Source of the DNA: an uncultured Candidatus Saccharibacteria bacterium
GTDB lineage: Bacteria; Patescibacteriota; Saccharimonadia; Saccharimonadales; CAIOMD01
NCBI GenBank assembly: GCA_963716565.1
Contig: OY970318.1
Span: 830-64,829, forward strand
DNA length: 64,000 nucleotides
Direction of reading: 5' to 3'
The position numbers were made by a program, and so were the translations under genes. This document shows, in pieces, positions 1-40,995 of this stretch (its first letter is position 1; each line of letters begins with the position of its first letter). Below the pieces are notes generated by a model. The model did not search any database. It was not told the DNA's origin and saw only the letters and a list, made by a program, of their open reading frames with translations.

Positions 1-3000
1 AATGGTAGCTATTTCTACTCCAACCTCACCATCAACAAATCTGGCGGCGTAGCTTCTTTAGCGGCCAACTATTCGGTTAGCACGGCCAACCAAAGGGTCA
101 CCATTACGGCTGGCACTCTAGCAACAGCCGGCTATACTTTGGCTTTATCTGGTGCTGGCTCTGTATTTTCTAACGACGGCACTCTAAGGGTGCAGGGCGG
201 GGAAACTTTAACCTTCACCAAAGACACTAACTCTGGAACGGTAGAATATGTTGGTACTGGAGCCACCAACTACGCCTCCCTCAACTACGGCAACACCTAC
301 TATGGTCTTACCATTAACTCTACTTCTGGCACTAACTCCTTTACGGCTGCGGCCGCCACGGCTGTAGGTAATGACTTTACTCTAACGTCTGGTACTTTTG
401 TAGCTCCTTCGGCCGCTAACCTAACCGTTTCTAGAAACTTTACTCACTTTGGTGGCAACTTTACTCATAACTCTGGCACGGTAGTTCTAAATACTACCAC
501 CATGGCCGAAGTCACTGGTTCAACTACCTTCAATAACCTAACTTGCTCTACGGGTGGTAAAACTCTTAACTTTGGAGCGGGGGATACTCAAACAGTTGTA
601 GGTACTACTACCCTCAATGGTTCAGCTGGTAATCTACTGACTCTTAACAGCAACGCTAGTCCTACTCAATGGCGGATTGATCCCCAGGGTACCAGAAGTG
701 TTTCTTATGTTGATGTTAAAGATTCCAATAACATCGCTGTGGCTTCCATTGGCCCAAGTAATTCCACTAACAGCTACAACAATACTAATTGGTTCAGCTA
801 CAGCGTTACAGCTTCGGCTGGTGCTAATGGCAGCATTGACCCTACTGGTGTTAGCAATTACGACAGCGGCTCTAGCCCCACTTATGACATCACTCCCGAT
901 CCTGGCTACCACATAGCCGATGTATTAGTAGATTCCGTTTCGGTGGGTACGCCTACTAGCTATACCTTTACTAACATCACCGCTAACCACACCATCTCTG
1001 TTACCTTTACCATAGATACTTACACCATCACCGCCTCCGCCGGCAGCAACGGTGCTATTGACCCAGTGGGCACCGATACTTACAACCTCGGCGACAATGC
1101 CACCTACGACATTACCCCCAACGCCAACTACCACATTGCCGACGTCCTAGTAGATAGCGTATCCGTCGGTACTCCCACCAGCTACACCTTTACCAACATC
1201 GTAACTAACCACACCATTAGCGTTAGCTTCGCCATCGACACCAAAACTATAACCGCCTCCTCCGGCGCCAATGGCAGTATTGATCCGACTGGCACAGTAA
1301 CCGTTAACTACGGCAGCGACCAAACCTTCACTATTACAGCTGACCCCGGTTACCAAGTTGACGATGTGCTAGTTGACTCCGTCAGCGTCGGCGCTCTAAC
1401 CGAATACACTTTCACTAATGTCACTACTAACCACACCATTAGTGCTAGCTTCACTATTAACACTTACACCATCACCGCCTCCGCCGGCAGCAACGGTGCT
1501 ATTGACCCAGTGGGCACCGATACTTACAACCTCGGCGACAATGCCACCTACGACATTACCCCCAACGCCAACTACCACATTGCCGACGTCCTAGTAGATA
1601 GCGTATCCGTCGGTACTCCCACCAGCTACACCTTTACCAACATCGTAACTAACCACACCATTAGCGTTAGCTTCGCCATCGACACCAAAACTATAACCGC
1701 CTCCTCCGGCGCCAATGGCAGTATTGATCCGACTGGCACAGTAACCGTTAACTACGGCAGCGACCAAACCTTCACTATTACAGCTGACCCCGGTTACCAA
1801 GTTGACGATGTGCTAGTTGACTCCGTCAGCGTCGGCGCTCTAACCGAATACACTTTCACTAATGTCACTACTAACCACACCATTAGTGCTAGCTTCACTA
1901 TTAACACTTACACCATCACCGCCTCCGCCGGCAGCAACGGTGCTATTGACCCAGTGGGCACCGATACTTACAACCTCGGCGACAATGCCACCTACGACAT
2001 TACCCCCAACGCCAACTACCACATTGCCGACGTCCTAGTAGATAGCGTATCCGTCGGTACTCCCACCAGCTACACCTTTACCAACATCGTAACTAACCAC
2101 ACCATTAGCGTTAGCTTCGCCATCGACACCAAAACTATAACCGCCTCCTCCGGCGCCAATGGCAGTATTGATCCGACTGGCACAGTAACCGTTAACTACG
2201 GCAGCGACCAAACCTTCACTATTACAGCTGACCCCGGTTACCAAGTTGACGATGTGCTAGTCGACTCCGTCAGTGTCGGCGCTCTAACCGAATACACTTT
2301 CACTAATGTCACTACTAACCACACCATTAGTGCTAGCTTCACTATTAACACTTACACCATCACCGCCTCCGCCGGCAGCAACGGTGCTATTGACCCAGTG
2401 GGCACCGATACTTACAACCTCGGCGACAATGCCACCTACGACATTACCCCCAACGCCAACTACCACATTGCCGACGTCCTAGTAGATAGCGTATCCGTCG
2501 GTACTCCCACCAGCTACACCTTTACCAACATCGTAACTAACCACACCATTAGCGTTAGCTTCGCCATCGACACCAAAACTATAACCGCCTCCTCCGGCGC
2601 CAATGGCAGTATTGATCCGACTGGCACAGTAACCGTTAACTACGGCAGCGACCAAACCTTCACTATTACAGCTGACCCCGGTTACCAAGTTGACGATGTG
2701 CTAGTTGACTCCGTCAGCGTCGGCGCTCTAACCGAATACACTTTCACTAATGTCACTACTAACCACACCATTAGTGCTAGCTTCACTATTAACACTTACA
2801 CCATCACCGCCTCCGCCGGCAGCAACGGTGCTATTGACCCAGTGGGCACCGATACTTACAACCTCGGCGACAATGCCACCTACGACATTACCCCCAACGC
2901 CAACTACCACATTGCCGACGTCCTAGTAGATAGCGTATCCGTCGGTACTCCCACCAGCTACACCTTTACCAACATCGTAACTAACCACACCATTAGCGTT

Positions 3001-3636
3001 AGCTTCGCCATCGACACCAAAACTATAACCGCCTCCTCCGGCGCCAATGGCAGTATTGATCCGACTGGCACAGTAACCGTTAACTACGGCAGCGACCAAA
3101 CCTTCACTATTACAGCTGACCCCGGTTACCAAGTTGACGATGTGCTAGTCGACTCCGTCAGCGTCGGCGCTCTAACCGAATACACTTTCACTAATGTCAC
3201 TACTAACCATACGATTAGCGCTAGCTTCACGATCATTCCCGTTGTTACCCCAACACCTACGCCAACTCCCGCCTCCACGCCTACACCCACTCCGGCTTCA
3301 ATCTTTGTATCTGGGCAAATGCCTGCCTCTACGCCGACCCCAACCCCAACTCCCGAAGAAATGGCCTCTACAGAAAACCAAGCAGAAACCAACAAAGAGG
3401 CTGCCCAGTCTGGAAGCTCCAACAAATCATTAGCCATCTTTATTGCTTGCTTGGGTGGCTTTGCATTATCCTTATCGGTTTTCGGATTTTGGTATCATGC
3501 TCGACGAAGATACGATGATGCCACTAACCAGGCGTATCACCAAGTAGCAGGGAGCGAAGTTAAAGCCCAGACAATTGCACCCAATAGCCAAACGGCTTCG
3601 CAATACGATCAACCCCCTAATCGCAATATCTTTTAG
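1..3636 (+). CDS. Repeat-rich cell-surface protein, 5' end cut by the window edge (beta-helix-like region, Ig-like 'InlB B-repeat'-type modules, Pro/Thr linker, C-terminal membrane anchor)
   Basis: Frame 1 is open from base 1 (NGSYFYSNLTINKSGGVASLAANYSVSTANQRVTITAGTLATAGYTLALSGAG...). This matches the interior of the next gene, so the TTG at 139 in the ORF track is not the true start. The protein has about 74-aa modules of the form Y.ITAS.G.NG.I.P.G....Y.ITP..GY.I.DVLVDS.SVG....YTFTN(I/V)T.NHTIS.SF. A PT-rich linker lies at about 3235-3360. A hydrophobic segment LAIFIACLGGFALSLSVFGFWY followed by HARRR forms the anchor. Confidence 0.85.
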   Translation, partial: NGSYFYSNLTINKSGGVASLAANYSVSTANQRVTITAGTLATAGYTLALSGAGSVFSNDGTLRVQGGETLTFTKDTNSGTVEYVGTGATNYASLNYGNTYYGLTINSTSGTNSFTAAAATAVGNDFTLTSGTFVAPSAANLTVSRNFTHFGGNFTHNSGTVVLNTTTMAEVTGSTTFNNLTCSTGGKTLNFGAGDTQTVVGTTTLNGSAGNLLTLNSNASPTQWRIDPQGTRSVSYVDVKDSNNIAVASIGPSNSTNSYNNTNWFSYSVTASAGANGSIDPTGVSNYDSGSSPTYDITPDPGYHIADVLVDSVSVGTPTSYTFTNITANHTISVTFTIDTYTITASAGSNGAIDPVGTDTYNLGDNATYDITPNANYHIADVLVDSVSVGTPTSYTFTNIVTNHTISVSFAIDTKTITASSGANGSIDPTGTVTVNYGSDQTFTITADPGYQVDDVLVDSVSVGALTEYTFTNVTTNHTISASFTINTYTITASAGSNGAIDPVGTDTYNLGDNATYDITPNANYHIADVLVDSVSVGTPTSYTFTNIVTNHTISVSFAIDTKTITASSGANGSIDPTGTVTVNYGSDQTFTITADPGYQVDDVLVDSVSVGALTEYTFTNVTTNHTISASFTINTYTITASAGSNGAIDPVGTDTYNLGDNATYDITPNANYHIADVLVDSVSVGTPTSYTFTNIVTNHTISVSFAIDTKTITASSGANGSIDPTGTVTVNYGSDQTFTITADPGYQVDDVLVDSVSVGALTEYTFTNVTTNHTISASFTINTYTITASAGSNGAIDPVGTDTYNLGDNATYDITPNANYHIADVLVDSVSVGTPTSYTFTNIVTNHTISVSFAIDTKTITASSGANGSIDPTGTVTVNYGSDQTFTITADPGYQVDDVLVDSVSVGALTEYTFTNVTTNHTISASFTINTYTITASAGSNGAIDPVGTDTYNLGDNATYDITPNANYHIADVLVDSVSVGTPTSYTFTNIVTNHTISVSFAIDTKTITASSGANGSIDPTGTVTVNYGSDQTFTITADPGYQVDDVLVDSVSVGALTEYTFTNVTTNHTISASFTIIPVVTPTPTPTPASTPTPTPASIFVSGQMPASTPTPTPTPEEMASTENQAETNKEAAQSGSSNKSLAIFIACLGGFALSLSVFGFWYHARRRYDDATNQAYHQVAGSEVKAQTIAPNSQTASQYDQPPNRNIF
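1018..3237 (+). repeat. Five near-perfect tandem copies of a 444-bp unit (148 aa, two B-repeat-like modules each)
   Basis: The string acttacaccatcaccgcctccgccggcagc recurs at 1018, 1462, 1906, 2350 and 2794, a period of 444. The antisense ORFs in the track repeat with the same period and identical sequence. Only a few substitutions are visible (for example gttgac/gtcgac near 2260 and 3148). Confidence 0.95.
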
Positions 3637-3810
3637 GCAAGCCAAAGACAAAACAATGGCTTATATATCTAGCTTAAGAAACGAGATATTTGGTAATTTA
3701 TAAAGAAACTCTAAAAACATCCAAAAAACTCCTTTAAGCCTAAGCATTAGCAGAGTATAATTTAAGCTAGCTGCGGGTAAAAAAATAACAAAAAGTGTAA
3801 AGGGCTCTGT

Positions 3811-11391
<7,581 letters not shown>

Positions 11392-11488
11392 GTGGTGTCG
11401 TTGCCGAAGTAAGGCCATGGATACAGCCGTCGACTAAAAGATAGCCTCAGCCTCTAGTCTTTAATCTTAAGCATTGTTATAATTTACA

Positions 11489-14400
11489 TTGATGGGAAAA
11501 GAAAAAATAACCCCGTCGTTATTAGGGTGTTCCAATAAAAATATGCAAAAACCCAATAGGGGTTTGTGTTTGAGGCGCCCTAACCCTGTAAAACGAATTC
11601 ACTTAAAACTTCTAAAGAATGTAAGCTATAACGTCTGGTTCAATAAATTTAGGAATCACAAAAAGACTCATTATGCTTATGGGGCTTTTGTTGTAGTTAT
11701 TTTAGCCTCAATTTTGATTACTAACTTAATGCCGAACAAGGCTGTAGCTACGGCCACCATGACCTGGACGAATAACGGCGACTTTAGTATGAACAAAGTC
11801 GGTGCTTGTGAAGCTACTACTTTAAACGGTGTAACGGTTACTGGTACAGCTTATACAGACGAAACGTGTGCCACGACTGGAATAGATTCAAGTACGACTT
11901 TAGCGGCAGGGCCGGCGTTTCTCAATAATGTTATTTCTTTGGCGGGAGGCGGTAGTCACGGTGTTGCCGCTAGGGCGGACGGAACAGTTTGGAATTGGGG
12001 TGGTAACGGTCGTGGCCAACTAGGAAACAATACATACATCTCTAGTATGTTCCCTGTTCAAGTTATGAATCCTGCCGGTAACGGTTATCTGACAGACATA
12101 GTCGCTGTCACTGCTGGCGCCGGACACACCCTAGCCCTTAAGAGCGATGGTACGGTTTGGGGGTGGGGGTATAGTGCTCATTATGAGTTAGGAGGGTACA
12201 CTACAGACAGATTATTGCCTGTCCAGGTGAATGGCCTGTCGGATATCATTGCGATATCTGGGGGTACTTGGCACTCTTTAGCCCTTAAGAGCGATGGTAC
12301 GGTTTGGGCTTGGGGGTATGGTGCTTATGGCCAACTAGGTATTAACTGGACCGGGAATACCGGAACACCTGTGCAGGTGAAAGATACGCCCGGAACTGGT
12401 TACCTAACTGGGATTACTGCAATTAGCGCTGGCGATAACCATTCTATAGCACTAGCGGGTGATGGCGCTGTCTGGGCATGGGGAAGAAATGATGATGGCA
12501 GGATAGGCGATGGAACTTCGGGCGTCGATAGAAGATTGCCTGTGCAGGTAAAAGATAGTGTCGGGTCTGGTTATCTAACAAATATAATTTCAGTAGCAGC
12601 GGGCGGAGGTCATAGTCTTGCCGCTGGCTCAGACGGTTATGTTTGGGCTTGGGGCGGGAATGTTGCGGGCCAGGTTGGTGATGGCACAATGACTTCCCCC
12701 AGAACCCTACCAATCAAAGTAAAAGACACTTCTGGTACAGGTTATTTGTCTAGTGTTATTAAGGTTACAGCGGGGTCATCTCACTCTATGGCCTTGAAGA
12801 ACGATGGCGGTGTTTGGGCGTGGGGATACAACAATTATAGTCAAATAGGCGATGGTTCACCTACGGACCACTCCACTCCGGTTCGCGTAAAAGATGCAGC
12901 CGGTACCGGATATTTAACCAATATATCTGCCATTTCTGGAGCCTATAATAATCCATTTGCCTTAGATAATGATGGCACGGTTTGGGCGTGGGGAGGGAAT
13001 AATGTTGGACAGGGTGGTTTTAGTTCGGTGTCTAGGTCTGCATCTAACACTACAACTCTGGATAAACCGAATCACATTCTGGCAATGGTGGATGCGACAA
13101 AGCTAGCAGATGTTACAAAAATAACCTCTAATTTGGCCTTAAAAAATGACGGCACAATCTGGGGTTGGGGAAATAATAGCAGTGGCGAGCTGGGAGATGG
13201 TACGGCTGTTAATCAGTCTGTGGCTGTACCTGTGGACGGCGGATATTTTAGTAATGTGGCGAGCATTGCATCTACAGCGCATTCAGTGGCCTTAAAAAAT
13301 GACGGAACAGTTTGGTCTTGGGGTTATGGTTATTATGGATCGCTAGGTATAAATTCCAATGTCAATAAATATAGTCCAGTTCAGGTGAGAGATGCTAGTG
13401 GAGCTAATTATTTAACTGATGTGATTGCCATTGCCGCCAACGGTTATTTCTCTTTGGCTCTAAAAAACGACGGCAGTGTTTGGGCGTGGGGCCAAAATAG
13501 TAGTGGCCAGCTAGGAGATGGAACTACTAGTCAAAGAAACCTACCAGTGCAAGTAAAGGATCCAGCTGGTACGGGGTATTTAACAGGCATTGTAGCGATC
13601 AGTGCTGGTAGTTCGCACTCTTTTGCTGTAAAAAATGACGGCACAATCTGGGGCTGGGGATACAATGCTTCCGGATGTCTCGGAGATAATACTACAACCC
13701 AGCGAACTTTACCCGTGCAGGTAAAAGATGCAGCTGGCACAGGCTACCTGTCTAATGTTGTCAAGATTATAGCCGGTGGAGGTACTTCCATGGCTATCTT
13801 GAACGATGGTACTGCTTGGGCTTGGGGGGTTAACAGTAATGGCCAAATTGGAGACGGTACTACTTCACAAAGAAATTTACCCGTACAGATTAAGGATACT
13901 GCCGGTACCGGCTACTTAGTTAATGTAGTATCTGTGTCTTCCGGTAGTAATTTTTCGATAGCGTCAACATCAGATGGTAGAGTTTGGGCTTGGGGTTATG
14001 GCTATTACGGTCAACTGGGAGGAAGCAGTGGATCAAGTCTGCCGCAACCCGTTTTAGATCCATCCGGTTCTGGGTATTTGTCTGGTGTTGCGGCAGTGTC
14101 TGCAGGTTCCAATCGCTCAGTGGCGCTTAAATCTGATGGCACCGTAATGTCTTGGGGCTACAATCTTGGTGGTCAGGTGGGGAATGGAACGCAAATTCCT
14201 ACCTATGTACCGGATAATGTATATTCAAATATTGACCTCAACGCCGGCTACGTTGGCACTGGCACAGCCTCCAACTTCATTGCCGACATGGGCTCTAACC
14301 GTAAAACCAAGTGGTACGACCTAGATTGGAACACTAGTGCTTTGCCAGCTAATACTAGCTTGAAGTTCAATGTTCGTAGCAGTGATGATAAAGTGAGTTG

Positions 14401-17056
14401 GTCAGACTGGAGCAGTGACTTCACTCAAAACACACCTGGTTCCACAACTGGCAATGCCGACATCTCGGCCCTTCCATTCAGTCGCTACCTGGAAGTCAAA
14501 GCTACCCTTACCTCTACCGACTTAGTTAATACCCCAACTTTGCAAGATTTCACCATCACCCACATGAACGATCAGAATGCCCCAACTTGGGACTACCCAG
14601 TTGCCATTCCGGTTTACACCGACGACACTAAAGCTACAGCCCTTACTTCCAGCTCTTGGCAAGCCAACAACAATCTAACTAGTATCTATGCTGATTGGTC
14701 TGGAGCCACCGAACCAGAAGAAGAATCAGGCATTGCCCACTACTACGTCTACCTTGGTACCGACAACACCGCTAATCCCATCACCGCTGGTGTAGATATG
14801 GATACCGCCACCGAAGGTTACATCGATTTACCAAACAATCCCACGGACGGCACTTACTACCTGCGCGTTACCGTATCTGACCTAGCTGGCAATAACCTCA
14901 ACATGCCATCCGGTAGTGATTTGTTCAAATATCTTTATGATGGCACTAAACCTAATAACCCATCTTATATTTCGGTCTCGCCAGTGGGCTGGAGCATAGC
15001 CAACAGTTTTGACTTTAGCTGGCCCGAAGCCCTAGACCCTGGCAGCGGTTCGTCTAATATCGATTACTATCAATATCGCAAAGCTGGTGGGGGCGACACT
15101 TGGCATGACACTGTCGACAGATCGATTATCGGGATCACTTCTTACCAAGATGGTCGTAACGAATTCTTCGTTCGAGCTATCGACAACGCTGGTAATATTG
15201 CCGACAACCAAACCAGCGTTTATTACTACTACAACGGTTCGGCTCCAAGCGCTCCTGCTGGTTTGGACGTGGTACCACCCAACGCTACAACTAACAGCTT
15301 TACCTTCACCTGGTCAGAACCAGCTGTCCACAATGCCGACATTCGTGGCTATTACTACTCCATTGGCCCCGAGCCGACTATTAACAATTCGGTCTTTACT
15401 ACTAACACTACTACCGGCGCTATTCCGGCTGCCACCCAGCAGGGCTTTAATACCTTTTACGTAGTAGCAGTTGACGCTGATGACCAAATTAACTGGGGCA
15501 GTTATGCCGAAATCCAATTTGAATGTAACACTACCGCCCCAGGTATACCAGGCGGAGTGGTAATTAGTGATAGTAGCAACCGAGCTGATGAAAACTGGGC
15601 ACTCACTACGGCATGGAGCGCCTCAGCCGGAACAGTCCACCATTATAATATCTACCGTTCTACTGATGGCATTAACTTCTCGGCCATCGGCCAAACGGGC
15701 AGTACAGGCTTTTTTGACTCCGGCCTATCCAATACATCCACTTATCATTACAAAATTACCGCCGTAGATAACGCTGGTGCCGAATCAGCCTTTTCGTCGA
15801 CCGTCTCTAAGCAACCAACTGGCAAGTTCACCGAACCGCCGTTAATTGTTACTGGTCCTGATGTCGACATTAAAGCCACTCGTGCCACCATAACTTGGAG
15901 TACCGACAGAGCTTCATCCAGCTTTGCGGCTTACTCTAAAGATAACTCTTACGCTGAATCTAAGGGCCAGGTGGACTCGGTTACTTCGCATAGCGTAGAA
16001 CTATCTGGCTTAGAAGCTGGTACTACCTACAACTTCAAGGTCCAATCTTTAGACGAAAACCGCGACTACCCAATCGAAGATGCTTATTCTGGTGAATTCA
16101 ATTTTACCACTCAATCGGCCCCTGGTATCGCCGAAGTTAATGTTTCGGATATTCGGTTAACTTCAGCCACCGTTACCTGGAAGACTACCACAGTAGCCAC
16201 CTCTACAATTGTTTATGGTAAGACTGCCAACTATGGTCAAACTATCACTGACCAATCCGGCTCGGCTGTTACCACTCACACAGTTAAGCTAGAGGGTCTA
16301 GACCATACCACTCCATATTTCTTTAAGATTTATGGTACGGACAGTGATGGCAACCAGCTAGTCTCCGACAACTACGCCTTCAGTACTCTAACCTATCCCC
16401 GAGCTTATGATGTGCGTTTTGAGCAGCAAAAGAACACGGCTACATCCACTCTAAAGGTTACCTGGACGACTAATGTGCCCACGAGCTCCATTGTTACTTA
16501 CAACCAAGAAGGTGAAAGCTCAAAAGAAGTATCCAAATCTACCCTAGAAACTACTCACTCTATGTTAGTGCCCAATCTTCAAGACAACGTGCTGTACTAC
16601 ATGAGCGTTGGTGGCCGTGATGCCTATGGTAACGCCGCCTTGTCAGACAGTCAACGAGTTAAAACCGACTACGACACCCGTCCGCCAGCCGTCACCGACA
16701 TCGTCACCGAAAGCACTTCGTCTGGTTATGGCTTAGATACCAAGGCCCAAATAGTGGTATCTTGGATGACCGACGAACCAGCCACATCCCAAGTGGAATA
16801 TGCCGAAGGCGTAACAGGTGACAGCTACAATATGCGCTCCCCAGAAGATAGTGGCTTAAGCACTTCTCATGTTGTTGTATTAACCGATCTCAAACCATCT
16901 AGCTCCTACCACTTTCGAGTTATCTCTAAAGATACCTCTGCCAACCAAACTATCTCCGAACCAGACTCGGTTCTAACCGACATAGCTCGGGCTTCTATCA
17001 TCGACATCATTATTAAGTCCCTCCAAGATACTCTTGGCTGGCTGTTTGGAGGATAG
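11489..17056 (+). CDS. Giant (1855 aa) membrane-anchored RCC1-repeat (beta-propeller) / fibronectin-III-like surface protein
   Basis: There is an N-terminal TM segment (YAYGAFVVVILASILITNL). Many RCC1-type repeats follow (G..H..AL..DGTVW.WG.N..GQLGDGT...R..PVQV), spanning about 11900-14200. The C-terminal part has repeated ~95-aa FN3/purple-acid-phosphatase-N-like modules (I.W.T....S.V.YG........T.H.V.L.GL...T.Y.F.V.S.D..GN). The start is ambiguous (TTG 11489, ATG 11492 or ATG 11543). Confidence 0.8.
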   Translation: MMGKEKITPSLLGCSNKNMQKPNRGLCLRRPNPVKRIHLKLLKNVSYNVWFNKFRNHKKTHYAYGAFVVVILASILITNLMPNKAVATATMTWTNNGDFSMNKVGACEATTLNGVTVTGTAYTDETCATTGIDSSTTLAAGPAFLNNVISLAGGGSHGVAARADGTVWNWGGNGRGQLGNNTYISSMFPVQVMNPAGNGYLTDIVAVTAGAGHTLALKSDGTVWGWGYSAHYELGGYTTDRLLPVQVNGLSDIIAISGGTWHSLALKSDGTVWAWGYGAYGQLGINWTGNTGTPVQVKDTPGTGYLTGITAISAGDNHSIALAGDGAVWAWGRNDDGRIGDGTSGVDRRLPVQVKDSVGSGYLTNIISVAAGGGHSLAAGSDGYVWAWGGNVAGQVGDGTMTSPRTLPIKVKDTSGTGYLSSVIKVTAGSSHSMALKNDGGVWAWGYNNYSQIGDGSPTDHSTPVRVKDAAGTGYLTNISAISGAYNNPFALDNDGTVWAWGGNNVGQGGFSSVSRSASNTTTLDKPNHILAMVDATKLADVTKITSNLALKNDGTIWGWGNNSSGELGDGTAVNQSVAVPVDGGYFSNVASIASTAHSVALKNDGTVWSWGYGYYGSLGINSNVNKYSPVQVRDASGANYLTDVIAIAANGYFSLALKNDGSVWAWGQNSSGQLGDGTTSQRNLPVQVKDPAGTGYLTGIVAISAGSSHSFAVKNDGTIWGWGYNASGCLGDNTTTQRTLPVQVKDAAGTGYLSNVVKIIAGGGTSMAILNDGTAWAWGVNSNGQIGDGTTSQRNLPVQIKDTAGTGYLVNVVSVSSGSNFSIASTSDGRVWAWGYGYYGQLGGSSGSSLPQPVLDPSGSGYLSGVAAVSAGSNRSVALKSDGTVMSWGYNLGGQVGNGTQIPTYVPDNVYSNIDLNAGYVGTGTASNFIADMGSNRKTKWYDLDWNTSALPANTSLKFNVRSSDDKVSWSDWSSDFTQNTPGSTTGNADISALPFSRYLEVKATLTSTDLVNTPTLQDFTITHMNDQNAPTWDYPVAIPVYTDDTKATALTSSSWQANNNLTSIYADWSGATEPEEESGIAHYYVYLGTDNTANPITAGVDMDTATEGYIDLPNNPTDGTYYLRVTVSDLAGNNLNMPSGSDLFKYLYDGTKPNNPSYISVSPVGWSIANSFDFSWPEALDPGSGSSNIDYYQYRKAGGGDTWHDTVDRSIIGITSYQDGRNEFFVRAIDNAGNIADNQTSVYYYYNGSAPSAPAGLDVVPPNATTNSFTFTWSEPAVHNADIRGYYYSIGPEPTINNSVFTTNTTTGAIPAATQQGFNTFYVVAVDADDQINWGSYAEIQFECNTTAPGIPGGVVISDSSNRADENWALTTAWSASAGTVHHYNIYRSTDGINFSAIGQTGSTGFFDSGLSNTSTYHYKITAVDNAGAESAFSSTVSKQPTGKFTEPPLIVTGPDVDIKATRATITWSTDRASSSFAAYSKDNSYAESKGQVDSVTSHSVELSGLEAGTTYNFKVQSLDENRDYPIEDAYSGEFNFTTQSAPGIAEVNVSDIRLTSATVTWKTTTVATSTIVYGKTANYGQTITDQSGSAVTTHTVKLEGLDHTTPYFFKIYGTDSDGNQLVSDNYAFSTLTYPRAYDVRFEQQKNTATSTLKVTWTTNVPTSSIVTYNQEGESSKEVSKSTLETTHSMLVPNLQDNVLYYMSVGGRDAYGNAALSDSQRVKTDYDTRPPAVTDIVTESTSSGYGLDTKAQIVVSWMTDEPATSQVEYAEGVTGDSYNMRSPEDSGLSTSHVVVLTDLKPSSSYHFRVISKDTSANQTISEPDSVLTDIARASIIDIIIKSLQDTLGWLFGG

Positions 17057-23383: not shown

Positions 23384-23770
23384 GGGACTGACTTTAGCTC
23401 GACGTTGAATATTAACAATTTATGCATGCAAGCCGGTTTGTGCACCGTTACCGTACTACAATAAGTAGATGGCAAAAACTTTCTACAGCGTGTAGCTAGC
23501 ATGTTTTCCATGCCAGCTTACGCACCAGCCCTAGTTTAATCTAAGGCGATTGCTTGGTTTGATGCCAGGTAGAACCAAAGCAGTCTCATATTTTCTGGCT
23601 GCCAATCTTGAGCACCGTTTGAGCTCATTTTTGTAAGCTTTTCGAACTGCGGCTAATAGTTTTTTGTCTGTTTTATAACTAGTAGCCTAAGACACCCCAA
23701 ACAGAATAAGCTTGTAGAGGCATGAGTTGTTGTTCGACGGACCCGGGTGCGATTCCCGGCAGTTCCACCA
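23384..23770 (+). ncRNA. ssrA: tmRNA (SsrA)
   Basis: The 5' end GGGACTGACTTTAGCTCGACG resembles the canonical GGGGCUGAUUCUGGAUUCGACG. At the 3' end the T-arm is CCGGG-tgcgatt-CCCGG, followed by CAGTTCC-A-CCA. The 7-bp acceptor stem pairs 23384-23390 with 23760-23766 and includes a G3:U70 pair. A candidate tag ORF GGC AAA AAC ... GCC CTA GTT TAA runs 23470-23538. Its reading frame is tentative. Confidence 0.85.
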
Positions 23771-23889: not shown

Positions 23890-24156
23890 ATGAAGGGTCA
23901 TTTTGTCTACATATTGGAATCGGAAATCGATAGTTCTTGGTATATAGGTTATTCTCAAGATGTAAAACAGAGACTCTTAGCGCATAATTCTGGCAAGAAC
24001 GTGTCTACAAAACTAAAGAAACCGTGGCGGTTAATTTATTTTGAGGGCTATCTTAATAAGAGTGACGCGTTAGGCAGAGAAGAATTTTTAAAATCAGGTA
24101 GCGGACACAGGTTCATTCGCAAGCAAATTTGTCACTATTTGCTAGAAAAGAATTGA
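23890..24156 (+). CDS. GIY-YIG nuclease-family small protein
   Basis: The sequence FVYILESEIDSSWYIGYSQDVKQRLLAHNSG fits the GIY...YIG motif, followed by ...R...E. Confidence 0.75.
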   Translation: MKGHFVYILESEIDSSWYIGYSQDVKQRLLAHNSGKNVSTKLKKPWRLIYFEGYLNKSDALGREEFLKSGSGHRFIRKQICHYLLEKN

Positions 24157-27189: not shown

Positions 27190-27759
27190 GTGCAAAAAAT
27201 TCATTTAAAGCTATTTAGCTTGCTGGCGGTTATGGCTTTTGTTGTTTTAGCTGTAGCACCAGTTTTAGCTGTAGCACAACAACAGGGCAATGATAGCGCT
27301 GGTTCAGATAACAGCCAAAATGTCACAGGCTCGGGCAGTGATAACGCTCAAGGCAATCGTTTGCAGGGCGAAAATCTAACAAAATGCCAAAATAAAGAAA
27401 CGCAAATTAATAACTATATGTTGCGCATTACTAATCGTGCTGAGTTGCAATACAACTTGTTTGGTACGATAGCCCAGCGCGTGCAGGCTTACTACCAAAA
27501 CAATAACTTGTCTTTAGGCAACTATAACGACTTGGTCTCTGCCGTAAATGCTACCCAGGTACAGGCTCAAAACACTTTTAGAGCTATGGAGCAAAACGGC
27601 GGTGCCTTTAATTGTGATAGCGACGATCCGCATGCCTATGCCAACCAATTTAGGAATAGCTTTAACAGTGCCGTAGATGGACTACAAGCTTATAAAAACG
27701 CAGTGCGCAACTTATTAGTGGCGGTACAAACAGTTGCCGAGGAGGCTAGTGATGAATAA
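27190..27759 (+). CDS. Secreted hypothetical protein (189 aa)
   Basis: AAGGAG precedes GTG 27190. The signal-peptide-like N-terminus is LLAVMAFVVLAVAPVLAVAQQ. Confidence 0.6.
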   Translation: MQKIHLKLFSLLAVMAFVVLAVAPVLAVAQQQGNDSAGSDNSQNVTGSGSDNAQGNRLQGENLTKCQNKETQINNYMLRITNRAELQYNLFGTIAQRVQAYYQNNNLSLGNYNDLVSAVNATQVQAQNTFRAMEQNGGAFNCDSDDPHAYANQFRNSFNSAVDGLQAYKNAVRNLLVAVQTVAEEASDE

Positions 27760-28051
27760 ATTAAAACAAGCCGGCTTTTCGGTAGTCGAAATAGCTTTAG
27801 TTATCGTGCTTTTGGGTATAGTTGGTTTTGTGGGATATAGAGTCTACGACGCCAATCGTGATGATAGTACAACCGCAGAAACAACAACGCCTACTGTCGA
27901 CCCAGCGGCTGCAACCGACGTTGGCACAGCGCCCGCAGTCGAAACGGCCAGTGATTTAGGGGAGGCACTAGAAGTGCTAGAGGCTACTGACCCATCTGGT
28001 AGTAATGTGACCGACGCTGACGCTATCGACAGCGACGTCGCCGGATTCTAG
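27752..28051 (+). CDS. Type IV pilin-like protein (prepilin N-terminal cleavage/methylation motif)
   Basis: MNKLKQAG/FSVVEIALVIVLLGIVGFVGY has the G-F junction with Glu at +5. A GAGGAGG lies 6 nt upstream of ATG 27752. The ORF-track start at 27734 is rejected. Confidence 0.8.
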   Translation: MNKLKQAGFSVVEIALVIVLLGIVGFVGYRVYDANRDDSTTAETTTPTVDPAAATDVGTAPAVETASDLGEALEVLEATDPSGSNVTDADAIDSDVAGF

Positions 28052-32017: not shown

Positions 32018-32061
32018 GCAAAAGCGCTATACTAATCAACAGGGAGCGCATCCCTGTTGAT

Positions 32062-32889
32062 ATGAGTATAAAAATATTTTCAAAAATCTTAATTTGTCTT
32101 GCTTCATTAACGGTTTCATCAGTGACCCTGACGGCCTTGGCTCAGAACGTTACCCAAGCCTATGGTACCGATACAGTTTTAAGGCGGGGTATGATTGTTG
32201 GCCTAGACGAAGAAAATCCGCTCAAGGTCGAAACTGTTAGTTCCGAACAGTACGAACGTATGCATGGTGTGGTGGTGGGTGTTAATGACTCGGCGCTAGT
32301 GCTAGATAGCCAAACCGAAACTATTTACGTGGCTACCACCGGACGGTTCACGGTTTTAGTTAGCGACCAAAATGGCAATATTGCTATTGGCGATTACGTA
32401 ACAGTCTCGTCGGTTAGTGGAATTGGCCTAAAAGCCAACAGCTCCGATCAGGTGGTTTTAGGTAGGGCAATTGAAAGTTTTGACGGGGATGATTCAAGCC
32501 AGGTTGTCAGTACGGCTACAGAAAAAGATGCCAAAGACAACGAAAAGCAACTACGTATTGGCCAAATCTTGGTTGATATTGATGTTGGCAAAAACCCACT
32601 GCTAAAGGCCGATAACGGATTACCATCAATCTTAAAAAAGGCTAGTGAATTCATTGCCGGGCATCCAGTATCTTCGGCCAGAGTCTATATAGGTTTGGCA
32701 GTGGTTGCTATTGTTTCAATTATTTCTGGCAGTATTCTTTATAGCGGCATCAGAAGCAGCATTGTCGCAATTGACCGTAATCCACTGGGCAAAAAAGTGA
32801 TTATAAAAAGCCTGCTACAAGTAGTTATTATTAGTGCCATTATTTTCTTGAGTGGAGCGTTTGGGGTATACTTACTACTGAGATTATAG
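32062..32889 (+). CDS. Secreted-domain protein with a C-terminal two-helix hairpin reminiscent of ATP synthase subunit c (no membrane carboxylate)
   Basis: A signal peptide (ILICLASLTVSSVTLTALAQN) is followed by a soluble region of about 190 aa. The C-terminus reads VYIGLAVVAIVSIISGSILYSGIRSSIVAI-DRNP-LGKKVIIKSLLQVVIISAIIFLSGAFGVYLLL. The gene occupies the atpE position directly upstream of the b subunit gene. Confidence 0.5.
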   Translation: MSIKIFSKILICLASLTVSSVTLTALAQNVTQAYGTDTVLRRGMIVGLDEENPLKVETVSSEQYERMHGVVVGVNDSALVLDSQTETIYVATTGRFTVLVSDQNGNIAIGDYVTVSSVSGIGLKANSSDQVVLGRAIESFDGDDSSQVVSTATEKDAKDNEKQLRIGQILVDIDVGKNPLLKADNGLPSILKKASEFIAGHPVSSARVYIGLAVVAIVSIISGSILYSGIRSSIVAIDRNPLGKKVIIKSLLQVVIISAIIFLSGAFGVYLLLRL

Positions 32890-32914: not shown

Positions 32915-33532
32915 ATGCAAATCTGGCAACTAGCAGTTATAATTTCTGCCACTATAGCTATAATTGCTTGGGTGCTATGGTTTGCCTTTCGCTCTAGTGG
33001 GGGCGAAAAAGCTAAGGTTCCGGCTCGGGCTTTAAGCGAGGTTGCCGAAACAGAAACCGAGCGCATATTTGATGATGAATTTCGTGAAGAATTACGTAAT
33101 CGCGGGCGATTATATTTTAAAAAGATTATTAGCGAAAACGCTATGTTCTTGCAACAAGACTTGCGCTTGACTACCAGCCAGCTCAGCGACTATATGAAAG
33201 AAGAAGTTAAGCGAACGCTGCAAGAAGAGTTTGCCAAATATACCGAATCAATCACTACTGCCAAAGACTTAGCCATAGAAACCATTCAAAAAACTCAAAC
33301 TACCATCGATCAACAGCGCCAGGCTTTAGAGAAGCAATTAAACGAAGAAGTAGCTATCGAAAAGAAGCGTACTTTAGATAACTTCGATAAAAACATGGCT
33401 GCCATTGTTAATCATTACATTATGGCTGCCATCGGCACCGAAATAGATTTAAGCAACCAGCTAGATTACATTTTTAGGCGGTTAGAAGAAAATAAAGCTG
33501 CCATATTAGAGGATATCCGTAATGGAACTTAA
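32915..33532 (+). CDS. atpF: F-type ATPase subunit b-like (N-terminal TM plus long coiled coil)
   Basis: There is one TM segment (LAVIISATIAIIAWVLWFAF) followed by a charged heptad-rich helix. The call rests on this and on operon position. Confidence 0.6.
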   Translation: MQIWQLAVIISATIAIIAWVLWFAFRSSGGEKAKVPARALSEVAETETERIFDDEFREELRNRGRLYFKKIISENAMFLQQDLRLTTSQLSDYMKEEVKRTLQEEFAKYTESITTAKDLAIETIQKTQTTIDQQRQALEKQLNEEVAIEKKRTLDNFDKNMAAIVNHYIMAAIGTEIDLSNQLDYIFRRLEENKAAILEDIRNGT

Positions 33533-34007
33533 ATTGCCGCCAGAACTAGTTACCTTAAAAGATGTTATACAGGCTCAGGGCGAGCTAAATTTATATATAG
33601 ACAAGATGATTCAAAGCGTTATGCGCCACGATAAGCCAGTGGAGTACCCAGAACTTTCTGTTGGTTTGAAGGCTTTGGTTACGCTCAACCAGATTGATTT
33701 ACACAAAGAAAACGAAGGTCGTCAGTTATTAACAAAGTTAGAAAGCCTTATTAACAAAGCGCCTCAAGTAAATGTTAGTTTTTCTGATGAACCGCCAGAA
33801 GAGGCTTTGTTAAAACTAATGGCCTGGTTCAGAAAAGAGATTAGCCCAATAATACTGTTTAAAGTTGGCATTCGCCCAAATATCGGTGCCGGTATGGTGT
33901 TGCAAACTCCCTTGCATCGCTACGATTTTTCTATTAGGCGCCACCTGATTAATCACCAAAAAGACCTGATTGAGTCCTTAAAAGGCAGTATGGTAGCTAA
34001 TCAATGA
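33522..34007 (+). CDS. atpH: F-type ATPase subunit delta (OSCP)-like
   Basis: The C-terminal pattern [10 protein letters not shown]...[32 protein letters not shown] resembles OSCP (..liGG..i..gd...D.S....L). Operon position supports the call. Confidence 0.6.
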
Positions 34008-35424
34008 GCAAGCATTTTGACACCCTAGTCGACAGCGGCAGCCCTATTGGTGAAGTTATATCAGTCAATAAATATCTAGTCACCGTTAAGGGCTTGCATC
34101 CAGTTAATCAGAACGCTTTGGTGTTGTTCGAAGATGATTCAAAGGGCCTGGTGCGTTATATATATAATGATCACGTAGAAATTTTTCATTTAGGTAAAAA
34201 TGTATTGCGGGCTGGAGTAAAGGCAGTAGTCCAACATAATGAGCTAGTATCGAAGGTGGGCAAAAGTTTTGTTGGCCGAGTGATATCGGTATCTGGTGAG
34301 CCTTTAGACGGCAAGGGTCCAATTGCTGCCGACGATGTATGGCCGGTATTTAACCAGGCAGTGCCATTGTATGAACGCCAAGCTCTTGGCGACTTACTCG
34401 AAACTGGTATAACGGTTATTGATAGCTTGTTTCCTATCGTTAAAGGCCAAAGGATGGCCGTGCTGGGCGATAGCAAAACTGGCAAAAGTACGCTTACTAC
34501 CCAGTTAGCTATTCATCAGAAAGATAGCCAAAACGTGGTTATTTATGTATTAATCGCTAAGCGTCGAGCCGATGTAGATATGCTCATCGATCGTTTGCAA
34601 GAAGCTGATGCTTTAAAGAATACTATCGTTATAGTATCAACACTTTTTGAGTCGTTAGTGGTAAGTTATTTAGCGCCATATGTTGGTTGTGCTATGGCTG
34701 AATATTTTTGGCAAAAGCTGGGAACAGACACCATTATTATTTACGACGATTTAACAACTCACGCTATGATTTATCGGGAAATGTCACTGCTTAGTGGTAT
34801 CAGCCCTGGCCGCGACTCTTACCCGGGCGATATGTTCTATACTCACTCCAGCTTGTTAGAAAGAGCCGGCCGTTTAGCCAGCAATAGTAAAACTTTAACA
34901 AGTTTGCCGTTGGTATTAGTGCCGGGTGGCGATATTACTGCCTATTTACCGACTAATATTATGTCAATTACTGATGGTCAATGGATCATGGATATGGATA
35001 TCTTCCGTGATGGCATCAGGCCGGCCCTTAATATTGGCTTAAGCGTTACAAGGGTAGGTGGAGTTGGCCATAACGATCGTCAAAAAAAGATTGCCGGCCG
35101 AGTTATGAAAACTTTGGCGGCTTATCGCCAAGCGGCCGAATATGCCCGCTTCGGATCAGAGCTGGCTCTAGAGTCTAAAAATGCCTTAACCGTTGGATGG
35201 CGTATCAATGAATTAATCTGTCAAAAACCAGCCGAGACCTTTAGTGCCATCAATCAACAGTTAATGTTCGAAATTATTCTAGATTTAGCCGAAGGCGAAA
35301 TTTTAGATATGCCACAGCTTAAGACTTTAGTTAGCGAATATTCTGCCCAGATTGCGCCTGACGATTCCAACTACGAAGAGATTAAAGCCCTGCTTAAATC
35401 TAAGAGCCTAATGGAGATGAAGAA

Positions 35425-35428
<4 letters not shown>
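34004..35428 (+). CDS. atpA: F1 ATPase alpha subunit (474 aa, short)
   Basis: Motifs are GDSKTGKST (compare GDRQTGKT), [47 protein letters not shown] and PTN..SITDGQ. Confidence 0.9.
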
Positions 35429-37583
<2,155 letters not shown>

Positions 37584-37592
37584 GCGTCGTTT

Positions 37593-37883
37593 ATGGCTAC
37601 CCAAAACCAATCAGCTCAAACTACCCCGGTTGCGGCCAACCGTTTTCATCTAAGGGTGTATTCTCCTTTTAGGGTTTATTTTGATGGTGACGCAAACAGT
37701 GTTTCGGCTATAAATGATACTGGGCCATTTGACATATTAGCTAGACACCATAAATTCATAACGCTTCTTAATCCTTGCGATTTGGTAATCAAAACCGAAG
37801 ATCAACAGGATTTTGTTATTAGTATCACGCGCGGCATTATGCAGGTAAAAGACAGTGATGTAGTAGTGTTTTTGGACGTTTAG
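37593..37883 (+). CDS. atpC: F1 ATPase epsilon subunit-like (96 aa)
   Basis: Size and operon position fit. The N-terminal beta-sandwich-like pattern is L.V.SP.......A.SV.A....G.F.IL..H.. Confidence 0.6.
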   Translation: MATQNQSAQTTPVAANRFHLRVYSPFRVYFDGDANSVSAINDTGPFDILARHHKFITLLNPCDLVIKTEDQQDFVISITRGIMQVKDSDVVVFLDV

Positions 37884-39416: not shown

Positions 39417-39432
39417 TTTTTAAGCTTAACCA

Positions 39433-39462
39433 TTGACTAAAAATTAAATAATTTTTTAAAGT
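39433..39462 (+). promoter_or_regulatory. Weak candidate promoter for the structured RNA
   Basis: TTGACT lies at 39433-39438, followed by an 18-nt spacer and TAAAGT at 39457-39462. Confidence 0.3.
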
Positions 39463-39468
39463 GTTTTT

Positions 39469-39924
39469 TGCTATTATTTAAAGAACCTCTTGTTGGGAGG
39501 TCTTGGGGGACTATAAGCAAGCGGTCCGGGCAAATCGGGGCATCACGTTTTGTTCAAGTAATGAACCGTACGGGCTTGATCTGTGATGAGTTAGCGGTGA
39601 CACTCAACAACACCAGCCGGGGTGCCCTTAGGGGCTACCACCAATACGCATGGGTTTACCCAGCCGTGGCGAAGAGCCAACGGCCCGAGTCACTCCTTGA
39701 TGTATGGGGGTGACATCCATCTGTGTTACCTGTGGCTCAGGTATAGGCGGAAGCGCCTTATCAGGGCCATCAAGGTCAAGACCACTGTGGGGGTATCCAA
39801 AACCTATGCGCCTTCCAGGCAGGCACGAAACCAAGTTCCCCGGTTTGCCTTTCGTGCCTGAAAACTCTGCGGATAGTCCAGTGGTATCCATTCCATCTGG
39901 GCTATCCGCTATAACCATAGTCTT
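39469..39924 (+). ncRNA. GC-rich structured non-coding region directly upstream of the RT; candidate retron msr-msd RNA (boundaries uncertain)
   Basis: GC rises to 58% (counted over 39601-39660) against 17% in 39421-39480. The ORF track shows overlapping ORFs in several frames on both strands with no SD or start context, a typical non-coding signature. An 11-bp perfect hairpin pairs 39820-39830 with 39850-39860. A 13 to 16-bp hairpin spans 39869-39909. A 13-bp long-range complement pairs GGGCAAATCGGGG (39528-39540) with CCCCGGTTTGCCT (39838-39850). Confidence 0.55.
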
Positions 39925-40995
39925 ATGAGCCAGATACAATTATTTGATCCAGAAGCATTAATGCAACCAGCGGTTGACCCCAGGGTCGAAAAATTATTGA
40001 GTGGCTTTGAGGACGCTAGCTTTAGGACATTCCCAAAACAAGAGCGCGATAAAGTTCGTTGGCTGCACGATCCCAACGAAAGCATGCGAGAGGCACATGA
40101 ACTTATTAAAGAGCTCGCTGCGAATGCTAGTGCCATATCGCCACATGCCACTGGGCTACAAGGTGGTAGTCGTGCCAATGCTGAACGGCATTTGGGCAAT
40201 AAGTTTTTTTATTTGATTGATTTAAAAGATGCCTACGGACAAATACAATTACCAGCGCTTGCAGAATTTTTAGGCAACCATGGCTTTCCAGCCGAGACTG
40301 CTGACATCGAAACTATTTTAAATCGTTTTTGTCGCAAACCCGACGGGCAGGGTCTTTGCCAAGGGGGCCCAGCCTCGCCGTTACTATTTAACATTGCCCT
40401 TTATGATGTCGACCAACAAATAGCGGGAATATGCGAAAAGCATGAACTAACTTATACGCGATATGCGGATGATTTGGCTATTTCTGGCCGTGAATCAATT
40501 GGCGATAAGAAGCGTAAGCAAATACGTGGAGTTCTTGAAGAGGCTGGGTTAGAAATTAGCCATAAAAAGACTCACCGCCATAGTTTGGCGAATGCTCCTG
40601 TAGTTGTGACTGGCATTCAGATAAATCGCAGCGGTTCAATTATTTTACCTACGCCCAAACAGCTAAGAGTAGCTAATATTATAAATGAGCTGTGCTTTCA
40701 AGTATTCGAGGATGGCGAACCATTAACCGAATTGCAGGTCCAAAAGGTGGCTGGCTACAAAGGCATGGTTATGTCTGCTATCGATGGGCGTCGAAAAGAT
40801 CTAACGGCTTTCGAAAAAGATGCTCTTGTAAAAGCCGAAGCATTAAGACTTTCGTATAAGCAGAGTAGGGAGACGGTCAATTTGGGCTTCACGGCTCTTA
40901 GATTATTCAATGGTCGACCGATGCAAATCGAAATTGTCGATGGTAGATTCCGCAGAGTAGTCGGCCCATCATTTGAACTGCCAAAACGGGATTAA
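39925..40995 (+). CDS. Retron-type reverse transcriptase (356 aa)
   Basis: Motifs in order are SRANAERH (NAxxH), YLIDLKDAY, LCQGGPASPLLFN (QGxxxSP), YTRYADDLAIS (YADD codons 40462-40473), SHKKT and PVVVTGIQIN (VTG). The protein aligns by eye along its whole length with retron Ec86 RT. Confidence 0.85.
   Translation: MSQIQLFDPEALMQPAVDPRVEKLLSGFEDASFRTFPKQERDKVRWLHDPNESMREAHELIKELAANASAISPHATGLQGGSRANAERHLGNKFFYLIDLKDAYGQIQLPALAEFLGNHGFPAETADIETILNRFCRKPDGQGLCQGGPASPLLFNIALYDVDQQIAGICEKHELTYTRYADDLAISGRESIGDKKRKQIRGVLEEAGLEISHKKTHRHSLANAPVVVTGIQINRSGSIILPTPKQLRVANIINELCFQVFEDGEPLTELQVQKVAGYKGMVMSAIDGRRKDLTAFEKDALVKAEALRLSYKQSRETVNLGFTALRLFNGRPMQIEIVDGRFRRVVGPSFELPKRD

Follow-up and report, generated by a model that had tools for sequence, protein, structure and literature searches.

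A secreted protein with a subunit c-like hairpin and no membrane carboxylate precedes a divergent F1-like ATPase operon in Saccharibacteria

We analyzed a stretch of 64,000 nucleotides (nt), hereafter the window, from an uncultured Candidatus Saccharibacteria bacterium of the order Saccharimonadales (assembly GCA_963716565.1, contig OY970318.1, positions 830 to 64,829 of the forward strand), which amounts to 64 kb of a 799,209-bp contig. The subject of this study is p275, our name for the product of the open reading frame (ORF) 32062-32889 on the plus strand, which starts with ATG and encodes 275 amino acids (aa). The gene heads an operon for a divergent F1-like ATPase, in the order p275, b-like, delta-like, alpha, gamma, beta and a short epsilon; the gap between p275 and the b-like gene is 25 nt in the window, and the genes downstream overlap or nearly abut. 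The protein combines a signal peptide, an outside domain and a C-terminal helical hairpin with two transmembrane (TM) segments that resembles subunit c of ATP synthases. The following parts were delimited in the sequence and in an AlphaFold 2 (AF2) model, whose confidence is given as the predicted local distance difference test (pLDDT):

32062..32142, plus strand: Sec-type signal peptide of p275 (aa 1-27), ending in A-L-A before Q28; helix at 2-22 in the model
32143..32625, plus strand: extracytoplasmic beta-rich domain of p275 (~160 aa; aa 28-188), AF2 pLDDT ~90
32626..32658, plus strand: short juxtamembrane helix of p275 between the outside domain and TM1 (aa 189-199), from AF2 secondary structure
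32674..32886, plus strand: C-terminal subunit c-like helical hairpin of p275 (aa 205-275), from AF2, Foldseek and family statistics
32776..32784, plus strand: R239-N240-P241 cytoplasmic loop, counterpart of the R-Q/N-P loop of subunit c

The model of the whole protein, built with 41 homologues, had a mean pLDDT of 87. Q28, which follows the signal peptide, is nearly invariant in the alignment of the p275 family, and the sequence and the model agree on a beta-rich fold spanning aa ~30-177. Foldseek comparison with BFVD matched the outside domain to phage preneck appendage barrels, tail and capsid fibres and DUF2190 decoration proteins (E-values of 6e-9 to 1e-6 over 150-165 columns), and comparison with the PDB matched it to 8pkh, 9ocb, 3gqh, 5wk1 and 1c5e (E ~1e-4 to 1e-2), which are solved decoration or cement proteins and a C-terminal fragment of phi29 gp12. 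A weak Pfam match of p275 to PF23982 is in line with a decoration-like fold. No catalytic motif is evident in the outside domain, and a PHROGs search with p275 gave no match.

The C-terminal part consists of TM1 (~208-227), a cytoplasmic extension and loop (228-253) and TM2 (~254-273). In the AF2 model these segments form two long helices, 205-239 and 241-274, with the joint at D/G238-R239-N240-P241; modelled alone, the hairpin reached a pLDDT of 90. The positive charges R231, R239, K244, K245 and R249 are gathered at the loop end of the hairpin. This distribution and the signal peptide place the N-terminal domain outside the cell and the loop in the cytoplasm. The initial annotation, which was made by eye, had described two hydrophobic helices joined by a polar DRNP loop over the last ~70 aa, a subunit c-like spacing with the N-terminus outside, and an extracytoplasmic domain ahead of the hairpin. 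The first description is borne out by the sequence, the model and the near-invariance of the loop, the second by the helix lengths of the model, the signal peptide and the loop-side charges, and the third by the domain at aa 28-188.

Conservation was counted over 247 complete hairpins of p275 relatives. The loop is retained almost without exception, with R239 and P241 present in 247/247, N240 in 246/247 and G238 in 244/247; Y270 is present in 246/247. D238 of the window protein is a local exception that replaces the family residue G, so the DRNP of the initial annotation is a local variant of GRNP. TM1 (208-227) contains three stray D/E in ~4,900 residue cells (one at 220 and two at 222), and TM2 (254-273) contains a single D/E in the 247 sequences, at position 258. 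Position 259 (P+18), which is in register with the carboxylate of c subunits, is L/I/V in the family and Ala in the window protein. At the membrane boundary, Q253 is variable (207 relatives with Q, 11 with E and 10 with K) and is therefore no conserved ion ligand. The helix-1 consensus, RVYxSLxxLxxxxxIxGSLLYSG, contains small residues only in isolation, and the GxGxGxG (or AxAxAxA) packing motif is absent from helix 1. Thus, the missing glycine motif of helix 1 and the missing Asp or Glu of helix 2, both remarked upon initially, are properties of the whole family. Since none of the 247 relatives has a conserved membrane carboxylate, these counts indicate that p275 cannot carry H+ or Na+, supporting the earlier proposal of a c-like element unable to do so.

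Structural comparison of the hairpin pointed to subunit c. Among 350,542 PDB chains, Foldseek ranks 1-45 were all F-type ATP synthase or c-ring chains of 68-89 residues, and the first match to another protein was at rank 46. The TM-score normalized to the query (TMq) was 0.65-0.80 for 44 of these 45 matches, with one outlier (TMq 0.50, 8.1 Å). For most of the c-subunit matches, the root-mean-square deviation was 1.0-2.2 Å over 64-69 residues, rising to 3-4 Å for about ten longer alignments, and sequence identity was 9-25%. In an hhalign comparison the loop alone was aligned, with RNP in register with RQP of the c subunits. The R-Q/N-P loop of subunit c contacts gamma and epsilon. As judged from the model, the hairpin may work like subunit c, and possibly derives from it.

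The genes downstream of p275 encode the remaining subunits:

32915..33532, plus strand: b-like subunit of the peripheral stalk (205 aa), with one TM helix at the N-terminus and a long helix after it; weak NCBIfam b matches
33522..34007, plus strand: delta/OSCP-like subunit, 161 aa; family profile against PDB OSCP/delta chains, E 8e-4 to 0.02
34004..35428, plus strand: F1 alpha-like subunit of 474 aa, with both ends shortened; PF00006 2e-67; TIGR00962 386 bits against a cut-off of 484
35425..36282, plus strand: F1 gamma-like subunit, 285 aa; PF00231 1.5e-28; TIGR01146 77 bits against a cut-off of 194
36279..37583, plus strand: F1 beta-like catalytic subunit, 434 aa; NCBIfam beta score 439 against a cut-off of 463
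37593..37883, plus strand: epsilon-like subunit, 96 aa; PF02823 at aa 18-94; N-terminal beta-sandwich only

Alpha, gamma, beta and epsilon are all F1-type, and all score below the NCBIfam equivalog cut-offs. The best NCBIfam matches of alpha and beta are the canonical atpA and atpD and not the MSC or MMOB families, and beta matches canonical F1 beta (E 1e-110) better than it matches the G1 beta of Mycoplasma mobile (E 5e-81). In beta, Walker A, the GER(V/I)REG sequence with the catalytic Glu, and Walker B are intact, and GELSPAD stands in place of DELSEED. Epsilon comprises the N-terminal sandwich only and thus lacks the C-terminal helices that inhibit hydrolysis in ordinary enzymes. The catalytic motifs of beta and an epsilon without the inhibitory domain would, on sequence grounds, be features of a hydrolysis-type enzyme.

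The b-like protein gave a weak match to a PDB b subunit (E 1.2). Its mean column identity across 13 lineages is 64%, far above that of ordinary b subunits, and it carries the motif EFREELRNRGRL(H/Y)F.K.I..ENAMFLQQDLRLTTSQL; the near-invariant motif EFREELRNRGRLHFEKIIGENAMFLQQDLRLTTSQL sits just after the linker that follows the TM helix. PF00213 is recorded on orthologues of the delta-like protein. The presence of gamma and epsilon together with the b-like and delta-like genes means that the rotor and stator stalks are both retained. No gene for atpB (subunit a) or atpE (subunit c) was found in the operon or the 64-kb window, a hidden Markov model (HMM) of subunit c found nothing at E<=10 in ~1.3 Mb from 85 sources, and neither an a nor a c subunit was found in ~100 related loci (~1.5 Mb). 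Both marks of a canonical F1Fo operon, namely the presence of a and c and equivalog-level scores, are therefore missing here.

The p275 family is large and closely tied to this operon. A first homologue search with p275 yielded 137 relatives of 260-300 aa, and a search seeded with a distant member yielded 777. A profile of the last 80 residues yielded 755 cluster representatives among 1.84 billion proteins; the best 150 of these 755 all belonged to the p275 family and had the hairpin at the extreme C-terminus. The family thus has over 750 cluster representatives, about 260-340 aa in length. A metagenome scan with an alignment of seven p275 sequences found 19 loci, and a scan with a single protein found no match. 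A spurious ORF or an assembly artefact is ruled out by the hundreds of family members, whose synteny is fixed.

Scanning of GTDB species genomes with beta identified 80 Saccharibacteria loci (65-80% identity) of 528 relatives, and the divergent b-like/delta-like/alpha/gamma/beta/epsilon operon without a and c is conserved in more than 80 Saccharimonadales loci. The gene order around it is metG-tatD-x-x-cysteine desulfurase-[p275]-operon. Among 72 sources carrying p275, made up of loci from the beta scan and loci reached from p275, the gene stands directly before the b-like gene in 67, after epsilon in one and at a contig end in four; it stands elsewhere in none. The one source with p275 after epsilon is L081 ('Ca. 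Saccharimonas sp.'; homologue at L081 8110-8910). In a further three loci (L104-L106), the order b-delta-alpha-gamma-beta-epsilon is followed by a p284 homologue (L104 10001-10855) and then by a gene for a 3093-aa protein. The post-epsilon homologues of this Saccharimonas-like lineage have 266-284 aa, a GRNP loop and a divergent outside domain, and next downstream are genes either for a membrane protein of 138 aa and a large surface protein rich in repeats, or for the 3093-aa giant. Among the findings that the initial annotation had named as adverse to a c-like role for p275 was the combination of a canonical a and c pair elsewhere, which relatives probably have, with occurrence of the family independently of ATPase operons, which none of the 72 sources showed.

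In most relatives, the region 3' of epsilon begins with a divergently transcribed gene for a membrane protein with a bactofilin domain (PF04519, 2e-6). The cluster that follows encodes four pilin-like proteins that are secreted, a protein of 331 aa that weakly matches WxLIP_PGBD (immunoglobulin-like) and has a C-terminal TM helix, and a 306-aa PKD-like protein, also with a C-terminal TM helix. The order of p275, the F1-like operon, the bactofilin-domain gene and the pilin-like and chaperone-like genes is shared by 41 related loci. This arrangement can be compared with the pam operon, which encodes the donor-strand-exchange pilins PamA/B/E/T, the membrane-anchored PapD-like chaperones PamC/D and the TM-anchored PamR, and with which 'ATP synthase subunit' genes consistently co-localize across the candidate phyla radiation (CPR) (bioRxiv 10.64898/2026.03.03.709456). 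The authors of that preprint took this co-localization to reflect a connection with ATP production and proposed that dedicated trans-envelope machinery does not exist. The 'tail fibre-like protein' mentioned there could be p275 or the bactofilin-domain protein.

p275 and the pilus-like cluster are inherited together. In loci with enough flanking sequence, both were present in 41, neither in 10 and p275 alone in two (L081 and the window itself), and no locus had the cluster without p275 (Fisher p = 3e-9, uncorrected for phylogeny). Where p275 is missing (L024, L027, L028, L039, L040, L043, L053, L057, L068, L069, L073 and L076), iscS is followed directly by the b-like gene, mnmA follows directly after epsilon, and the pilus-like cluster is missing as well. 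These loci fall at no fewer than five separate places in a neighbour-joining tree of beta, which is a crude tree. Since p275 lies on one side of the operon and the cluster on the other, two separate deletions are needed wherever both are absent, which argues for a functional dependency between them.

We consider, with a probability of about 0.5, that p275 serves an F1-like ATPase as its ion-blind, c-like subunit in the membrane and outside the cell, and that this ATPase works on a surface structure. After cleavage of the signal peptide, p275 would expose its phage-fibre- or decoration-like beta domain outside the cell. The c-like hairpin would anchor the protein, and its invariant G-R-N-P-L loop would be the likely docking surface for the foot of gamma and epsilon. 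Because there is neither a membrane carboxylate nor an a subunit, the assembly could not translocate ions; ATP hydrolysis by alpha3beta3 would be passed on through p275, as torque or as a conformational change, to a structure at the cell surface. In most relatives the candidate target, suggested by genetic linkage, is the adjacent Pam-like cluster with the bactofilin-domain gene. p275 might assemble as a ring or as a small oligomer, and might rotate. A bolder version, in which the hairpins form a c-ring-derived, ion-blind rotor with a crown of outside domains that is turned, through ATP hydrolysis, by the F1-like head on its b-like/delta-like stalk and drives the assembly, rotation or retraction of Pam pili or another fibre, is speculative and, in our judgment, improbable.

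Several results weigh against this proposal. The Foldseek E-values of the c-subunit matches, 0.1-2, are non-significant for so short a query. The VirB2-type pilins of the type IV secretion system of Southlakia are also placed in the ECOD class 'F1F0 ATP synthase subunit C' (structure-based annotation, PMC10633639 supplement), and because these pilins share the subunit c fold class, the fold match of the hairpin is non-specific and does not imply homology. Profile methods gave no support: Pfam and NCBIfam scans of p275 found no ATP-synt_C match at E<=1, hhalign of the hairpin profile against a seven-species c alignment gave a probability of 1.9%, a profile search of the PDB with the p275 hairpin found no c subunit at E<=10, and a c-subunit HMM found no match to p275 at E<=10. 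After these negative results we dropped sequence homology between p275 and subunit c and claim a resemblance only. Thus, of the relation to subunit c suggested initially, the structure and the register of the loop speak for it, and the profile tests, the Foldseek E-values and the missing GxGxGxG speak against it; the membrane part of p275 resembles subunit c without being a member of the c family.

The genetic evidence has adverse points of its own. The cluster is likened to pam by gene architecture and a single weak Pfam match (WxLIP_PGBD), and no Pam-like gene is present in the 64-kb window. In 10-12 loci the operon is intact, equally conserved and catalytically complete, with no p275 within 10 kb on either side, so that either p275 has moved elsewhere in these genomes or the ATPase works without it. 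One of these loci lies on a complete chromosome, OZ246406.1, from a genome that the searched protein collection includes; it is not among the best 120 of the 777 matches of a search seeded with the nearest p275. Finally, phage fibre and decoration folds of this type usually trimerize, and an outside domain that resembles them is a poor fit to a ring of 8-15 copies.

Some of these points suit a different role, in which p275 is an envelope or pilus anchor, serving as platform or tether for a Pam-type filament or for the bactofilin-domain protein, with a generic hairpin, and is placed beside the ATPase operon by co-regulation or synteny, without touching the F1-like complex. That p275 and the pilus-like cluster are lost jointly and the ATPase operon stays intact would be expected of such an anchor, as would the absence of profile similarity to subunit c and the non-specific nature of the fold matches, and a phage-fibre or decoration fold is suited to binding or oligomerization. 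However, p275 lies on the far side of the operon from the cluster and always abuts the operon (before the b-like gene in the 67 sources, after epsilon in L081 and L104-L106), and the window keeps p275 and the ATPase without the cluster. Moreover, the sole invariant cytoplasmic residues, G-R-N-P-L, correspond to the loop by which subunit c binds gamma and epsilon, and a passive anchor would have no need of such an invariant loop. We therefore regard the anchor role as possible but doubtful.

A second alternative retains a link to the ATPase and places p275 on the stator side as a non-rotating accessory, its hairpin packed against the TM helix of the b-like subunit in place of a and its outside domain fixed to the wall or surface layer. 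The retained b-like/delta-like stalk has to be held in the membrane against torque, the mycoplasma subunit with a signal peptide and two TM helices was suggested by those who studied it to belong to the stalk, and a trimer-type outside fold suits a small oligomer over a large ring. In contrast, the motif in the loop is that of the rotor contact in c and is no feature of a or b, and the b-like motif is equally conserved in loci without p275 and is thus not specific to it. Gamma and epsilon would then have to engage some partner other than p275, and no other candidate is encoded nearby. We consider this alternative to be quite unlikely.

Comparison with other genomes bears on the ATPase as a whole. 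Southlakia epibionticum has a normal atpZ-B-E-F-H-A-G-D-C operon (PMC10633639 supplement), and KEGG counts (PMC12592800 Table S5) list one of each subunit in TM7x and RAAC3. According to the same table, three complete genomes, those of Ca. Saccharimonas aalborgensis, GWC2_44_17 and Ca. Mycosynbacter amalyticus, have two copies of atpA, atpD and atpG and one of atpB, atpE and atpF, and several CAILAD01 bins have alpha, beta, gamma and epsilon without a, b or c. From the sub-threshold scores of the F1 genes and these double sets we infer that the operon of the window is a paralogous set; it is probably a second F1-like ATPase and not the main ATP synthase, and the second sets of the KEGG counts may be of the same type. 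That it is the only ATP synthase of the organism, with the a subunit and the c ring replaced by p275 as a literal reading of the initial annotation would have it, is very unlikely: although no a or c gene occurs in the window or the related loci and the CAILAD01 bins show a similar lack, the F1 genes are divergent and paralog-like, alpha, beta and gamma are doubled in three complete Saccharimonadales genomes that have a single a/b/c set, the operon of cultivated Saccharibacteria is a normal one, and the absence in this organism refers to 64 kb of a 799-kb genome. The description of p275 as standing at the 'atpE position' was accordingly misleading, since the operon is a divergent F1-like one and related genomes have a separate a/b/c set.

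Rotary F-type ATPases are textbook ion machines, and to our knowledge the F1-like ATPases of mycoplasmas are the only known derivatives without a and c, with their membrane sector and force path unsolved. The Saccharibacteria operon appears to be a second and seemingly independent case, in the poorly understood CPR; in the literature searched we found no description of an F1-like ATPase in the CPR/Patescibacteria. The retained stalk, together with a c-like partner that has no ion-binding residue and has an outside domain, makes the use of F1 torque outside the cell directly testable. The ATPase is also a candidate energy source for Pam pili, whose assembly, on the current proposal, requires no dedicated machinery. 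If the ion-blind, c-derived rotor were true, a rotary ATPase, originally an ion machine, would have become a mechanical drive that acts across the membrane on an extracellular filament. Furthermore, KEGG counts the paralogous alpha, beta and gamma as atpA/D/G (PMC12592800 Table S5), so calls of 'F-type ATPase present' in Saccharimonadia may be inflated, and inferences on respiration or the use of proton-motive force in CPR reconstructions may partly reflect a non-bioenergetic paralog.

One further feature lies immediately upstream of p275:

32038..32060, plus strand: inverted repeat CAACAGGGA-gcgca-TCCCTGTTG, a perfect 9-bp stem with a 5-nt loop, read from the sequence

It ends 1 nt ahead of the p275 ATG, inside the 44-nt gap 3' of the cysteine desulfurase gene. 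The repeat could be a hairpin for translational or transcriptional control; it might occlude the ribosome-binding region or, from its place between iscS and the ATPase operon, cause attenuation.

The window contains other genes of interest. Downstream of the operon, between mnmA with a small Pro/Ser-rich ORF and alaS, a 356-aa reverse transcriptase is encoded at 39925-40995 on the plus strand (RVT_1 3.6e-22, YADD motif). The ~500 nt upstream of it (39420-39925) contain no convincing ORF, and it could be a retron-like or other domesticated reverse transcriptase element. Upstream of metG, a 105-aa ORF (27734-28051) with a type IV pilin-like N-terminus (KQAGFSVVEIALVIVLLGIV...) overlaps the end of the gene for a 189-aa secreted protein. 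A transfer-messenger RNA gene is located at 23384-23770 (Rfam RF00023, 106 bits) and is followed by a small ORF (23890-24156) that has, by eye, the look of a GIY-YIG-type nuclease. Giant ORFs occupy 139-17056 and encode proteins of 1165 aa (InlB-type B repeats), 2526 aa (terminal HATPase_c and several TM segments) and 1855 aa (at least 12 RCC1 repeats and Fn3 domains), the last with an ABC/FtsX (MacB-like) pair next to it. This is a large region of surface or secreted proteins, typical of episymbiotic CPR bacteria.

Among known systems, subunit c itself (AtpE, PF00137) is the closest in form. Shared with it are a ~70-residue two-helix hairpin with both ends outside and a polar cytoplasmic loop on the F1 side, a conserved R-(Q/N)-P loop, invariant and in the same register, and helices that reach ~12-14 residues past the membrane on the F1 side; p275 is also encoded together with homologues of gamma, epsilon, b and delta. 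It differs in having no TM2 carboxylate (P+18 is L/I/V/A), no GxGxGxG and no profile similarity to PF00137, in its N-terminal signal peptide and ~160-aa outside domain, and in the lack of an a subunit alongside.

The FliH-FliI-FliJ proteins of the flagellar and type III secretion ATPases are relatives of F1 b/delta, alpha/beta and gamma, respectively, and form a module derived from F/V-ATPases that builds an extracellular filament without ion-coupled ATP synthesis, a use comparable to the one proposed here. The type III secretion ATPase is a homo-hexamer that docks on the export gate, whereas the Saccharibacteria operon keeps a full alpha3beta3-gamma-epsilon with a stalk, has a c-like hairpin as partner candidate and encodes no export gate. 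In the case of the Pam system, p275, the missing a and c genes and the paralogy are undescribed in the preprint; the outside domain of p275 is itself phage-fibre-like, a likeness to that system.

The nearest functional parallel is provided by the F1-like X0 ATPases of mycoplasmas, namely the MIB-MIP-associated ATPase and the gliding G1-ATPase of M. mobile (Beven et al. 2012, PMC3369863; PMC12994834; PMC11864180), to which NCBIfam and PMC12994834 assign type numbers in opposite order. They too are paralogous alpha/beta/gamma/epsilon clusters without a or c, are genetically linked to a cell-surface machine, and have been proposed to transmit ATP-driven force across the membrane. They coexist with a canonical F1Fo; a possible parallel in Saccharibacteria is given by the KEGG double sets of three relatives, whose second set may be of this operon type. 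A signal peptide followed by two C-terminal TM helices is found in MMCAP2_0577 and MMOB1650, a match in architecture only, with no sequence similarity, and the outside-domain subunit there has 85-127 kDa as against the 275 aa of p275. In contrast to the Saccharibacteria operon, the mycoplasma clusters encode a 12-TM subunit but neither b nor delta, and the set that defines them also includes a small cytoplasmic subunit, a combination that the Saccharibacteria operon does not show. Membership of the mycoplasma Type 2/3 families (MSC_0618/0619, MMOB1660/1670) was rejected, as no specific similarity to them was found in NCBIfam. Judging from these comparisons, the F1-like ATPase of Saccharibacteria probably arose independently of the mycoplasma systems.

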